Origin: a virus
Taxonomy: Duplodnaviria; Caudoviricetes
DNA: 40,803 nt
Virus record (IMG/VR): IMGVR_UViG_3300048856_000136
Coordinates: 1 to 40,803 of that record
Strand: one strand, 5' to 3'
The notes beneath the pieces were generated by a model that saw only the letters and a list, made by a program, of their open reading frames with translations, did no database searches and was not told the origin of the DNA. Both the position numbers and the translations under genes were made by a program. Positions within the stretch are counted from its first letter, which is position 1. Every line of letters begins with the position of its first letter. This document shows positions 2,341 to 40,803 of this stretch, piece by piece.

Positions 2341-2464
2341 GCTGCGGTGCCGGGTGCCTCCCGGTGCTCTGGTCAGACTGACAAACTCCAGAGCGGAAAC
2401 TCTTAGACTTTTAGCATGCGCTGTTTGACAGTCTTCCGCGTGCGCTAGCCGCATTCACCACAAC
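2341..2464 (-). ncRNA. C4/CI-like structured phage RNA (copy 1) in the pL transcript
   Basis: Closing stem TTGTGGTG/CACCGCAG, AAT plus a small hairpin, and 3' hairpin CCGGGAGGCACCCGG. Architecture resembles P1 C4/P4 CI-type RNAs. Confidence 0.55.
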
Positions 2465-3020: not shown

Positions 3021-3224
3021 ATGAGCAAACAATCAGATGAGCTTTACGATGAGATGTGCAGGGTTGTCGGTGACGTGGTTTTCACGCTTCACGATTTTGG
3101 GGTTGAGTCGAAGCAGATAGTGATAGCAGATGCACTTAGAGCGGCGCTGGCTCATAAAGGAGAGGAAAGAACAGAGTTGATGATAAAGGCAATAGAAGCT
3201 CAAGTGCGCGTGCTGGATCGGTAG
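3021..3224 (+). CDS. fumD: FumD/YdhZ (DUF2767)-like small protein, copy 1
   Basis: DELYDEMCRVVGDVV...KQIVIADALRAALA resembles E. coli YdhZ/FumD. ATG 3021 preferred. Confidence 0.7.
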   Translation: MSKQSDELYDEMCRVVGDVVFTLHDFGVESKQIVIADALRAALAHKGEERTELMIKAIEAQVRVLDR

Positions 3225-3229
3225 GCATG

Positions 3230-3252
3230 AAAAACCCGGCGTGGTGGCCGGG
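3230..3252 (-). terminator. Intrinsic terminator closing the cI operon
   Basis: CCCGGC/GCCGGG stem with an A-run on the + strand, between convergent genes. Confidence 0.7.
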
Positions 3253-4184: not shown

Positions 4185-4898
4185 TCACCCAAACGTCTCT
4201 TCCGGCCACTGAGCCTTAACCACTTTACCTATGATGCGGCAGCTATGATCGCAGTCCAGAATTCTATAGGACGGATTGAGCGGTACCAGATAGCTGACCC
4301 CTGCATCCTTCTCATACTTTTTGAAAGTCACTTCAGAGTCAGCATTCGCTGATGCCACACAGAAGTCGCCAGTCTCGACCGGTTCTGCCGGGTCGATAAG
4401 AATCAGCATCCCTTCAGGGAAGCTTGGTCGAACACCCTGTGGCGCAGTCATTGAGTGACCTTTGACTTCAAGCCAGAAGGCTTTGTCACTGGCCTTCTTG
4501 GTTGTCGGAACCCACGCCTTAGCATCTCTGGAGGTAAAACTACCAACCTCAGAAAAGTCACCAGCCTGGACATAGGTGAACAGGGGATACTCATAGTGAT
4601 TCGGGCGAGAGTTTTCCTCGCCAATCGACTGATACATGTCAGCGATCTCAGCTGCGATTCTCGGACTGAACTCACCAACATTAACTTTCAAAAATCTTGC
4701 TAATGCTGAGGCGTTACTGGGATTTAGAGCGTTTACGCCATTCAACAATGATGCAACAGCTGACTGACCTACGCCTAAGGCGTCCGCCACTGACTCTTGG
4801 GAAATGCCCAATTCAGATTTTTTGCGCTCATAGATTGATTTCAGTCTCTGCGCGTCTTCGATTTGCTCAGTAGTGAGCGGCTTTTTCTTTGCATTCAT
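4185..4898 (-). CDS. cI: Lambda-like CI repressor (HTH + S24 peptidase)
   Basis: [27 protein letters not shown] cleavage site, GHSM, TFKK and C-terminal WPEETFG as in lambda CI. Confidence 0.97.
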
Positions 4899-12269: not shown

Positions 12270-12333
12270 ATGCCTCAATGTTTTCAGAATTTGTCAGGAG
12301 TTACTGAAAATAAATTTATGTTAATTTTTTTCA

Positions 12334-12455
12334 GTTGCTGCTAATCCCCCTAAGCGGCGGGGTGTAAATGGTCTTCATAGCTAACGCTGTGGGTAATCTT
12401 GCACAAGCCATATTGATCATTGTGTGGCTTACCGGGAGGCACCCGGGGCGGCAAC
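12334..12455 (+). ncRNA. C4/CI-like structured RNA (copy 2)
   Basis: GTTGCTGC/GCGGCAAC closing stem, AATCCCC..GGGG hairpin, and the same CCGGGAGGCACCCGG hairpin as copy 1. Confidence 0.55.
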
Positions 12456-12646
12456 TTTAACTCAGCTATGCCCTCTGAATTTTCATAATCATGGGAATTT
12501 AAGGCATGGCTGAGTTAAGCAAACTTAATTTTAATCTTTCCTAAAAGATGATTTGAACCCTGTTGCCGATGGGCAAGGTAGTTACCGCTATAGCGTCAGG
12601 TTATTTTTTCGGAAAGATGGAAAGCAGAAGTTTGTTCAGGAAAATT

Positions 12647-12716
12647 TACGGGCAGCAGGACTTGAACCTGCATCTGCAACCTGTTGGTTGTAGTAATACC
12701 TTTATACCACGCCCGT
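12647..12716 (-). pseudogene. tRNA-like element / pseudo-tRNA
   Basis: Acceptor ACGGGCG/TGCCCGT and perfect T arm GCAGG-TTCAAGT-CCTGC. Aberrant 6-nt anticodon loop, no CCA. Confidence 0.6.
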
Positions 12717-38578: not shown

Positions 38579-38785
38579 ATGTACTCAAACGAAGCAGACG
38601 AACTCTACGAGGAGATGTGCCGCATAGTAGGCGATATGGTGTTCACGCTGCATGATTTTGGCGTTGATTCTAAACAGATGGTGATAGCAGATGCGCTGAG
38701 AACCGCGCTGGCGCATAAGGGAGAGGAAAGAACAGAATTGATGGTAAAAGCAATGGAGGCGGCGGTTCGGGTGCTGGAGCGTTAG
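38579..38785 (+). CDS. fumD: FumD/YdhZ (DUF2767)-like small protein, copy 2
   Basis: Highly similar to 3021..3224 (shared FTLHDFGV, ALAHKGEERTELM). Confidence 0.7.
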   Translation: MYSNEADELYEEMCRIVGDMVFTLHDFGVDSKQMVIADALRTALAHKGEERTELMVKAMEAAVRVLER

Positions 38786-39034
38786 TCACAAAAAAGCCCG
38801 CACATGGCGGGCAATTGGTGTGTCCTAATCTTATCGTAGGCAACACAATGCTGTGTGTTACCTGTTCAGCTTAGCTCGCAGGTGCTTATTAACTGTGAGA
38901 ATTGTCTAAATGTCATCTTCTGGTTGTGTCAGCGAGACTGAAGACAAAAAAGCCCGCTCAGGACGGGCCAACCAGTAATTTTGCTGTATGAAGTCTTATT
39001 ATAGACCTGAGGCTTGCAGTCTCGGGCACTGAAG

Positions 39035-39061
39035 TTATCGACCGTATCGCATAAACCTTGA
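39035..39061 (-). promoter_or_regulatory. sigma28 (FliA)-type promoter
   Basis: TCAAGGTT-N11-GTCGATAA. Confidence 0.65.
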
Positions 39062-39147
39062 GCGATAGACACAAAAAACCCGCGCGAGGCGGGCTTGAAA
39101 TGTAATGCCGTCGATCTTATTTGGGGTTTAATTCCCTGGTAAGACTG

Positions 39148-39174
39148 TTATCGGCATAGGTCAGTAATTCTTCA
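39148..39174 (-). promoter_or_regulatory. sigma28 (FliA)-type promoter
   Basis: TGAAGAAT-N11-GCCGATAA, perfect -10. Confidence 0.7.
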
Positions 39175-39556
39175 GGCTGAGATACAAAAAATTGAACGAG
39201 GCGGGTTAGCCTTGGATTTCAGGCAAAAAAATCCCGCATATGCGGGCGATATGACGATGATGTTTTAGTTATGCACCAGGGTAGGAGCGTAGTGACAATT
39301 TGCCATAGATGCTGTTTACATAAAATAAGCTCTTAAAATTATCAGAATTTAAGTATAAAAAACCTGCACGAGGCGGGCAAATAGGTGTCTTTATCTTGTC
39401 GTTCGCAACACTTGCTGTGTTACCGGACAATACTAATCCCCAGATTTTGATAAATAAATCACTCTGTATAGATTATGTGATGTGAGTTCTTTAGTGGTTG
39501 CTGGCGCGCAAAAAGCCGCATCTCTACGGCCTCATGTCACCCAAACGTCTCCGGCC

Positions 39557-39646
39557 CTATGAAAAGTAAAGGCCCTTTTGCAGCAATGCCTCAATCAGCA
39601 TGAGTACTACTATCGCTGCACAAATAGGAGGCAGATAAATCTTCAT
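39557..39646 (-). CDS. 29-aa hydrophobic peptide (type I toxin-like, not in ORF track)
   Basis: MKIYLPPICAAIVVLMLIEALLQKGLYFS*. AAGGGAG RBS within a CTTCCC-AA-GGGAG hairpin, terminator at 39510-39530. Confidence 0.6.
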   Translation of the reverse strand: MKIYLPPICAAIVVLMLIEALLQKGLYFS

Positions 39647-39883
39647 GTTATGCTCCCTTGGGAAGTTTCTGAGTTAGAACCAGAAGTAAACACAACTGGT
39701 TAGGCATACCTCTCTTTCGTCCACTAAAGGGGACTCATCCGTGAGGTGCTATAGTCCTGACAAACCCTGGTGTTGGTTTGTTAGATAAAATTTGGTAGCT
39801 GAAATAATAGGCGGGGGAGATGATATCACCTGTTATCCACAGGGCTTAGCTGTAAATTTATCAGGTGTCACTCTTAGAAATAC

Positions 39884-40145
39884 TCAGTCCATAAACTTAA
39901 GAGACGGATGCTCCATCCCCGCCTCAATAGCATCTACGTTACGCTGCATTTCAGTAATTAGCTTCTTTGCCATATCTAAGGATATCGACATAAGGAAATT
40001 CTTTTTCGGTTAATGCGTGCTCGGCTAGGGTATCCTTGAAAGACAGCTTGAGCACCATCAGCTGAGCCATAGAGCTGTAAATTGAACCGAATTCAACTAA
40101 ATCGCGCATTCTTCCAACATTGGGCTCTCTTTCATTTTTCATCAA
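39884..40145 (-). pseudogene. Frameshifted small gene, possibly BssS-like
   Basis: ORF 39951..40145 continues in another frame near 39985 as ISLDMAKKLITEMQRNVDAIEAGMEHPSLKFMD*. Size and pattern resemble BssS. Confidence 0.45.
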
Positions 40146-40803
40146 CAGGCTCCTCTTGTTTTAATGAAAGCTTAATTTTCTGCAATTCATCGTATCGATC
40201 ATGGAGAGATTTAGGGAAAAGCTCGGTATAAACCTGCCACAGCGTGCTAAGAGAGCGATGTCCGCTCACCTGCGCGACTTCCTCAATAGTGAATCCAGCT
40301 TCGAATAATCTACTAACTCCCTCTCTTCTCAAATCGTGATAGCGCAGATCGGAAATACCCAATTTGTTACGTTCCTGAGCAAACGTAAGGGAAATGTTTT
40401 TCGGCCTGAATGGGAAAATACATTCCTCTCGTTTGGGTTGCCTCATAACAATCTCCCAGGCATCACCAAGCAAGGCAACTTTCATATGATTACCTATCTT
40501 TTTGCGAGGATCCTTTCTGTCTCGTACAACAACCGCTTTTTGCACGTGATCTATATCTTCCCACCGAATACGGGTGACCTCGCCAACGCGCATGCATGTT
40601 AAAATTGAAAACATGAATATTTCGGAGAAAGGAATGTTTTTATATGAACTTTTTTCTCTGACTTTTAGGGCTTCAATAAGACGATCTGTTTCGTCCTGCG
40701 TTGGCCGGCGACTTCTTTTTTGAGAGGAGGTGGTCATGCGAAGCTTATTCATTTGATACTTCGCATAGCTAAAATCATCCAGCCTGACATCTACGTTGAA
40801 CAT
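40132..40803 (-). CDS. int: Tyrosine recombinase/integrase, catalytic portion (probably 5'-truncated by the window)
   Basis: TCMRVGE (R), RDRKDP (K), YHDLRRE (HxxR), SGH, and Y in WQVYT. Confidence 0.92.
   Translation of the reverse strand: MFNVDVRLDDFSYAKYQMNKLRMTTSSQKRSRRPTQDETDRLIEALKVREKSSYKNIPFSEIFMFSILTCMRVGEVTRIRWEDIDHVQKAVVVRDRKDPRKKIGNHMKVALLGDAWEIVMRQPKREECIFPFRPKNISLTFAQERNKLGISDLRYHDLRREGVSRLFEAGFTIEEVAQVSGHRSLSTLWQVYTELFPKSLHDRYDELQKIKLSLKQEEPVDEK

Follow-up and report, generated by a model that had tools for sequence, protein, structure and literature searches.

A possible ArcZ decoy in the leader of a predicted 29-aa membrane-peptide gene, with an adjoining small-RNA array, in a prophage probably hosted by Pantoea

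Introduction

The small RNAs (sRNAs) ArcZ and RprA activate rpoS (PMC11331407, PMC13501541; statements on cited papers, here and below, refer to the portions of their text that were available). The closest described phage-borne antagonists of core sRNAs are the anti-sRNAs AgvB and AsxR of EHEC prophages, which are 51–60 nt long, have a ~42-nt 3′ region in common, are encoded downstream of PR′ and act against GcvB or FnrS (PMC4104026). Titration by the leader of an mRNA is exemplified by OppX, the oppA 5′ UTR, which acts as a sponge of MicF in Salmonella (PMC9988348). Among the targets of ArcZ, rpoS and hexA are paired by the 5′ seed of processed ArcZ in the 5′ UTR upstream of the ribosome-binding site (RBS), with the hexA site at −50 to −42 (PMC11331407), and in E. 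coli, flagellar sigma promoters drive sigma28-dependent sRNAs that are chromosomal and UTR-derived (PMC10578931). The type I loci tisB/istR, dinQ/agrB, shoB/ohsC and ldrD/rdlD, as annotated in E. coli K-12, combine a hydrophobic peptide of 26–35 aa with a long leader.

Here we describe a leader, a small open reading frame (sORF) and an array of five predicted RNA units, A to E, in a 40.8-kb provirus record with lambdoid repressor, replication, lysis, terminase and tail genes; the window below means the whole of this stretch of DNA. Like AgvB and AsxR, the units would be short RNAs that occupy lambdoid moron positions, copy target sequence and antagonise a core sRNA, and unit C is predicted to resemble AgvB in having its anti-seed at the 5′ end (PMC4104026). 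Unlike AgvB and AsxR, going by their published description, the units stand in a tandem array after the tail genes with only the terminator in common, mostly present their putative seeds in hairpin loops, and by prediction converge on ArcZ, RprA and rpoS (PMC4104026). The leader resembles OppX in being a long 5′ UTR with a site proposed to titrate an sRNA, but OppX joins a core gene to MicF whereas the present case would join a prophage sORF to ArcZ (PMC9988348). The leader site recalls those of rpoS and hexA in its position, a 5′ UTR ahead of the RBS, and differs from them in that the 12-mer is perfect, its hairpin is self-contained, no anti-RBS arm is predicted and the distance from the start is greater than in hexA (PMC11331407). 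The sigma28-like promoters are likewise flagellar sigma promoters placed before small RNAs, although here they are predicted and lie in a prophage array (PMC10578931). Peptide size, hydrophobicity and leader length are alike in the sORF and the type I loci; against these, RBS occlusion is weaker in the sORF, which matches no family and next to which no antitoxin RNA was found.

Results

The sORF and the array lie after the tail-fibre assembly gene, among genes for a KGG stress protein, a FumD/DUF2767 protein, a BssS-like protein and the C-terminal part of an integrase; we take the first three to be genes of stress-regulon type. The FumD gene (38579..38785, plus strand; PF10965, E=1e-22) converges on the array, and its best named relatives are mostly from Pantoea, with others from Erwinia and Paramixta. 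On this basis the host of the prophage is likely Pantoea, and 75 Pantoea genomes, a sample of the genus, were taken as the host background. Upstream of the leader, two overlapping ORFs on the minus strand (39884..40145) match positions 54–88 of phrog_17793 (E=1e-5) and, weakly, BssS (E=0.028, below the cut-off); we join them as what is likely one frameshifted BssS-like gene. The tyrosine integrase (40132..40803, minus) is represented by its C-terminal 223 aa, compared with 371 aa in relatives, and on the source contig it is split into proteins of 124 aa and 223 aa. Elsewhere in the window, a second FumD/DUF2767-like gene (3030–3240, plus) lies downstream of cI and its two neighbours and converges on a terminator, a layout echoing that at 38579–38812. 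An Rfam STnc100 match (12305–12506, plus) and a tRNA (12647–12716, minus) lie between Q and the lysis genes, with an STnc100-like repeat also near 2346–2366 (minus). Upstream of the leader, at 39833–39841, a 9-mer that is perfect by what we take to be the DnaA-box consensus lies within a short inverted repeat.

A sequence-only reading of this DNA had claimed a hydrophobic sORF at 39646–39557, and it is present on the minus strand: a 29-aa frame (MKIYLPPICAAIVVLMLIEALLQKGLYFS; 39557..39646) behind the Shine-Dalgarno (SD) sequence AGGGAG, whose product is a predicted single-pass membrane peptide with hydropathy in the type I toxin range (best 19-residue value 2.28, with four type I toxins spanning 1.67–2.56). 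The peptide belongs to no known family, having no match in Pfam, NCBIfam or PHROG and a best score of 0.82 in an Atlas comparison in which scores below 0.9 are leads only. An allele in RNA runs X3 and X4, from one study, has 2 changes in 90 coding bases, both at synonymous third positions as read by hand, versus 10 in 152 leader bases, and protein P0100 is a further allele of the peptide (I8F and E19D). Directly after the stop codon lies a relic of the 3′ end of a cI repressor gene (39537..39556, minus) that matches the window's own cI end near 4207–4185. It is followed by an intrinsic terminator-like hairpin (39508..39532, minus) at the putative end of the sORF transcript, recognised from its fold and from homologues in loci L006 and L081, and absent from the terminator scan output. 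The same relic and terminator trail a 52-aa hydrophobic ORF in L006, while in L081 the terminator follows an intact cI. The alleles and the cI-relic context favour a real small gene, on thin evidence; its product is likely a genuine passenger that lacks toxicity.

Leader and peptide were absent from the 75 Pantoea genomes, searched as protein and as DNA, and 401 genomes of the family gave no match except to the 3′ relic. Pattern searches returned none in viral contigs, where 12 matches of one pattern share the motif alone, and 37 matches in metagenome contigs, all 37 unrelated; BLAST against phages and plasmids, and searches of two tiny genera, gave no homologue of either. The leader is known in only two alleles, the window's own and that of X3/X4. 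A contig from run X3 joins 39517 to 40078, an allele without the sORF, the leader and most of the BssS-like gene. In RNA run X2, one contig spans 38930–40125 at depth 17, with most flanks at ~5–8 and a diverged FumD contig at 14; contigs from these runs carry no strand or transcript ends, and that of X2 may be DNA.

Within the leader, CCAACACCAGGG at 39776–39765 (minus) is the 12-nt ArcZ seed complement reported by the earlier reading and its sole exact copy in the window. It exactly complements the ArcZ seed in five Pantoea genomes and one other enterobacterial genome, the seed being unchanged in all five of the former. The complement is displayed in a hairpin (39760..39781, minus; 130 nt before the AUG) with a 7-bp stem and the 8-nt loop AACACCAG, in which the six stem pairs checked have a predicted probability of 1.0 and the loop is predicted to be unpaired. 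Five pairs of this hairpin lie beyond CC/GG, where four or more would arise by chance in 2% of cases. The duplex of leader and ArcZ is predicted at −24.6 kcal/mol, for an opening cost of 7.2–7.7 kcal/mol; the predicted ArcZ:rpoS leader duplex is −15.7. Because a window-wide hunt against many sRNA seeds is expected, by arithmetic, to yield a 12-mer by chance, the context of the match matters. Shuffles gave p<0.001 for the ArcZ 12-mer within the leader (0/1000) and p=0.002 across the 1.06-kb cassette. Together with the loop display and a conserved counterpart in Pantoea leaders (below), they back the link to ArcZ that had been drawn from the letters, and by these sequence measures the match exceeds chance.

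In the X3/X4 allele the stem is unchanged and the loop carries A>G and C>U, which keep G:U pairs with ArcZ in a duplex still predicted at −22.3 kcal/mol; at 9 of the 12 positions, any transition would yield G:U regardless. These 2 changes within the 12-mer, set beside 10 in 152 leader bases, are not better than the leader average (P=0.18). A candidate −10 element, CTATTAT (39804..39810, minus; sigmaS/sigma70-like by what we take to be the consensus), was chosen by eye, is absent from the promoter scan output, and would have transcription begin near 39797, ahead of the ArcZ site. The surrounding region, 39850–39760, is C-rich (25 C versus 14 G). The leader also holds four GGA motifs, but the hairpin of the CsrA-type site ACGGAU has a pair probability of 0.01, which makes control by CsrA no more than a lead. 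A hammerhead ribozyme at 39742–39715 (minus) was rejected: only a core-like motif and stem II are present, completion within 600 nt reached 7 pairs versus 11 by chance elsewhere, and Rfam gave no match. The core-like motif overlaps the ACGGAU site, and the second allele differs there by one loop base. A duplex of the leader with the region upstream of rpoS (p=0.003 among 32 tests) has scattered pairing and was discounted.

The RBS-occluding hairpin described earlier does exist, pairing CUUCC with GGGAG of the SD across a 3-nt loop (39653..39665, minus; −3.9 kcal/mol), but to call the RBS sequestered was an overstatement. Its opening is predicted to cost only 7.5 kcal/mol (6.7 in a longer fold), cheaper than for 23 of 32 other starts of the phage, all mechanical ORF calls, and compared with 16.8 for tisB, 12.9 for ldrD, 15.4 for dinQ and 8.7 for shoB. 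The SD bases are predicted to be 41–96% paired across competing helices. In X3/X4 the SD hairpin is unchanged, and the strand of a competing upstream helix (39696–39690) has two pair-breaking changes. Predicted RBS access was identical with the ArcZ site held open (7.5 versus 7.5 kcal/mol).

Five minus-strand units share a terminator-like repeat, and four of them pass the terminator scan, which found 8 terminators versus 2.6 +/- 2.1 in shuffles; Rfam gave no match at gathering score in the region. Units A (39354..39504) and D (38788..38943) present RprA complements in hairpin loops, ACACAGCAA in A (39420–39412; 9 nt, p=0.03), followed by the terminator-like repeat, and ACACACAGCA in D (38858–38849; 10 nt, p=0.021), followed by its terminator. 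Unit E (38944..39069) has, by eye, a 17-nt stretch (38997–38981) that would pair 16 bases, one as G:U, with the RprA 3′ region, with a perfect run of only 7 nt (p=0.22), and a terminator. A second ArcZ complement, ACCAGGGAA (39140–39132; 9 nt, p=0.01), lies at the predicted 5′ end of the terminator-bearing unit C (39070..39179), and eight of its bases also complement SdsR. Unit B (39224..39353) complements the SD region of rpoS (39288–39275; 10 nt perfect, p=0.001) and also ends in a terminator. Predicted promoters on the same strand are sigma70-like for unit B (39380–39352) and sigma28-like for units C (39174–39148) and E (39061–39035); by what we take to be the sigma28 consensus, these two are the window's only such sites, and both lie within the array. 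Perfect sigma28-type promoters were also seen in other prophage terminator arrays adjoining fumD (L002 at 3735, reverse-strand count; L079 at 1434).

Two sites of at least 9 nt were found in the cassette for ArcZ (p=0.019) and two for RprA (p=0.032), and among eight Pantoea sRNAs tested these alone have two; the six controls had longest matches of 5–9 nt (p>=0.46). ArcZ, RprA and rpoS were chosen after the matches had been seen, and p-values from duplex energies (0.04–0.15) are weaker than those from exact matches. The unit at 39225, which is unit B, had been read as able to pair 9 bp with the ArcZ site of the leader, and ACCCUGGUG (39282–39274) can do so, but only at p=0.039. With the Pantoea rpoS SD, unit B would form 10 perfect nt and 14 bp with a bulge, at −24.6 kcal/mol versus −20.0 for the leader, and complementarity to the rpoS SD explains the supposed mimic better, because this pairing is longer and stronger. 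Of the mimic and the sponge proposed for the array, the sponge is supported and extends to RprA, and the mimic gives way. Unit B has no homologue, the 14 pattern matches in viral contigs being unrelated.

Homologues of units A and D, and more loosely of E, occur in 7 of the 75 Pantoea genomes and in four viral contigs, three of which have them next to tail genes as in the window; nine genomes matched the array query, and the two that matched through the cI terminator and through bare terminators were left out. The motif ACAGCA, a hairpin-loop sequence complementary to the conserved 3′ seed of RprA, is invariant in 16/16 aligned A/D-type copies. The hairpin is 94% paired, with only one pair changed on both sides, so that covariation is thin. 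The homologue of unit E in L079 keeps the sigma28-like promoter and the RprA match. Terminator-ended elements with the invariant RprA-seed complement were seen in chromosomal loci (L075–L078, L082, L083) and mostly prophage-like ones (L073, L079, L087–L090), with up to three copies beside phage tail genes; in L078 the element follows, by eye, a BLUF-EAL-like gene. In the independent phage array L088, two RprA units flank an ArcZ complement of 10 nt. This array is the only one of 15 other array or RprA-element loci with an ArcZ complement of at least 9 nt, and an rpoS match occurs in 0/15 (L073 and L089 being the same array and L002 having no RprA element). No ArcZ complement was found within 60 nt upstream of an RprA motif in the 75 Pantoea genomes, and an RNA with ACACAGCAA was not found in five supplementary files of a P. 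ananatis sRNA-seq study (PMC6749038). Judged by these comparisons, the combination of ArcZ, RprA and rpoS appears so far unique to this prophage.

The 12-mer of the leader occurs 238 times in the 75 Pantoea genomes, versus 9 times for its reversed control, a count that includes arcZ and ArcZ-like genes. We inspected 92 sites in 90 loci, 30 selected automatically and 60 picked by hand, mostly from genomes with many matches. The sites fall into arcZ, ArcZ-like genes read antisense, RBS-overlapping sites of two gene families and two leader classes, both of which show the loop-in-hairpin design of the phage leader. In the larger leader class (L123, L126, L212–L261), a hairpin with the same 8-nt loop sits 136–140 nt ahead of the start codon AUG in a core MHS-family transporter gene found in 67/75 genomes. 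We compared 48 of these leaders, chosen by leader homology (50 of 68 matches, namely the 30 best and 20 lower, minus two without the anchor). The exact 12-mer is present in 43 of them; the other five, which may share one origin, carry C>U and A>G with G:U pairs kept. Only 5 of 263 other 12-nt windows in the transporter leader are as conserved, all at the selection anchor. No homology beyond the motif was found between phage leader and transporter leader, and in seven transporter leaders ArcZ binding had no predicted effect on RBS access. The transporter-leader hairpin is likely an unreported ArcZ target or sponge.

In the second leader class, hairpins with the AACACCAG loop lie ~40 nt before the start codon (L158, L166, L177, L185, L191). 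The two gene families whose RBS the 12-mer overlaps have signal-peptide-like starts (L143, L148, L156 and kin; L155, L162, L179 and kin) and are likely ArcZ-repressed targets, to judge from site position. ArcZ-like genes, with the same seed and their own terminator, were seen away from arcZ in L157, L159, L164, L165 and L175 (genomes G413, G414, G443) and further in L124, L132, L149, L169, L182 and L192; G414 has three in tandem within ~1.1 kb. P. ananatis pPAR237 appears to be an ArcZ-like gene. We rejected pPAR238 of the same species as an ArcZ sponge, since it runs antisense to an ArcZ-like gene made up of seed and terminator. The words 'paralog' and 'copies' occur 0 times in the available text of a 2024 ArcZ review.

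Discussion

We propose, with a probability of roughly 0.42, that the leader serves as a decoy for ArcZ at the head of an RNA cassette, carried by the prophage, that would titrate RpoS-activating sRNAs and block rpoS translation. A transcript would start near 39797 and end at the terminator near 39510, and processed ArcZ on Hfq would pair first with the 8-nt loop and then open the stem, at a net of about −17 kcal/mol, and such titration would keep ArcZ from rpoS and from its other targets. RprA would be titrated in like manner by units A, D and E and ArcZ by unit C, while unit B would repress rpoS translation directly by covering the ribosome site; sigma28 would switch on units C and E in motile cells. 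The cassette would in this way lower RpoS, dampening the general stress response of the host. ArcZ may also affect the level of the peptide mRNA, an unlocking of the RBS not being predicted. Transcription, Hfq binding, pairing and the effect on RpoS are what we infer from the observed sequences, from complements in greater number than in shuffles and from a loop design that recurs in conserved Pantoea elements. Several findings count against a decoy: leader and peptide are rare, and the second allele has two loop changes; an ArcZ complement of at least 9 nt occurs in just 1/15 other loci, and unit B stands without a homologue; ordinary target regulation would account just as well for the twin site in the transporter leader; and neighbours of stress-regulon type sit oddly with an anti-RpoS cassette.

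Such ordinary regulation would make the leader a long-range ArcZ target that sets the amount of peptide mRNA through blocked Rho termination or guided RNase E, titration being minor, and a small non-toxic membrane protein would then track oxygen and growth phase. The hairpin and spacing shared with the core transporter leader, the conserved look of the ORF and the C-richness of 39850–39760 agree with this, as do the blocking of Rho by ArcZ in the rpoS leader and its binding upstream of the RBS in hexA (PMC11331407). The oppA leader, too, is a MicF sponge in Salmonella and is activated by MicF in E. coli, and because it shows both behaviours, a decoy and a target are not mutually exclusive (PMC9988348). 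We nevertheless hold a predominantly target role to be rather unlikely: no effect on RBS access is predicted in the window or in seven transporter leaders, and the neighbouring complements of ArcZ, RprA and rpoS would be left unexplained. Alternatively, the 12-mer could be a chance match, or the hairpin could be kept for other reasons, in a patchwork of cI-end relics and terminators with an incidental or unregulated ORF. The two site changes in the sole other allele, the rarity of leader and peptide, the X3 allele that joins 39517 to 40078 without the whole segment and the cI-end relic after the sORF all fit, but the shuffle p of 0.002, the 2% for loop display, the conserved twin element in the transporter leader and the RprA family next door make an accident unlikely.

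The sequence-only reading had seen in the peptide a type I toxin-like product; in this model RBS structure would keep it silent, and ArcZ and unit B, the latter as antitoxin or mimic, would control it. Such wiring is not supported: the RBS is weakly occluded, a long antisense partner and a family match were not found, and no coupling of ArcZ to the RBS is predicted. Peptide length, hydrophobicity and a long leader do recall TisB and DinQ, and shuffles give a weak local likeness to TisB (p=0.012), LdrD (0.017), DinQ (0.037) and ShoB (0.18). Blocking of an upstream standby site, the mechanism of tisB, would moreover escape RBS folding, and the RBS of ShoB opens cheaply too (8.7, with 7.5 kcal/mol for the sORF). 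Even so, the opening cost is below all four toxin controls (8.7–16.8, shoB being close), and the upstream RBS helix is broken in the X3/X4 allele. The longest same-strand in-trans complement in the window is 11 nt versus 64, 23, 19 and 10 for the known pairs, an exact-match measure that is imperfect in that the tisB control itself scored only 10; the unit B complement has just 9 nt, and a plus-strand terminator over the leader was not found by the scan. The hydrophobic moment is 0.79 versus 1.5–2.0 for TisB, DinQ and ShoB, and the peptide has no toxin Pfam match. A controlled toxin is therefore improbable, and toxicity of the peptide is possible but unsupported. Very improbable is that the inverted repeat with its 8-bp centre is a DNA recombination core, an attachment site shared with arcZ, instead of an RNA site. 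It has what we take to be the shape of a tyrosine recombinase core, and the integrase is 350 bp away, but the RNA runs compared have no joint here, the second allele departs from the invariant arcZ sequence inside the centre, and core leaders that lack an integrase carry this hairpin too. The case is stronger for the RNA cassette, whereas the toxin story is weak.

In the literature searched, of which most subscription papers lay outside the scope, no ArcZ or RprA sponge in a prophage was found, and the words 'sponge' and 'phage' occur 0 times in the available main text of the 2024 ArcZ review; RIL-seq tables in bioRxiv supplements or subscription papers may hold such pairs. A wider proposition, which we put forward tentatively and regard as doubtful, is that Pantoea prophages carry modular RNA cassettes that would hit RpoS activation thrice, through decoys for ArcZ, decoys for RprA and a repressor acting directly on rpoS, in part under sigma28 control, in a hairpin-loop decoy design shared with an undescribed chromosomal family of RprA sponges and with the core transporter leader. 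AgvB and AsxR each hit one sRNA (PMC4104026), and an array converging on both enterobacterial RpoS activators and on rpoS would differ from them in this respect. If the decoy reading is true, the cassette would supply natural inhibitors of ArcZ and RprA, and the phage would tune the stress-versus-motility state of its host by RNA alone.
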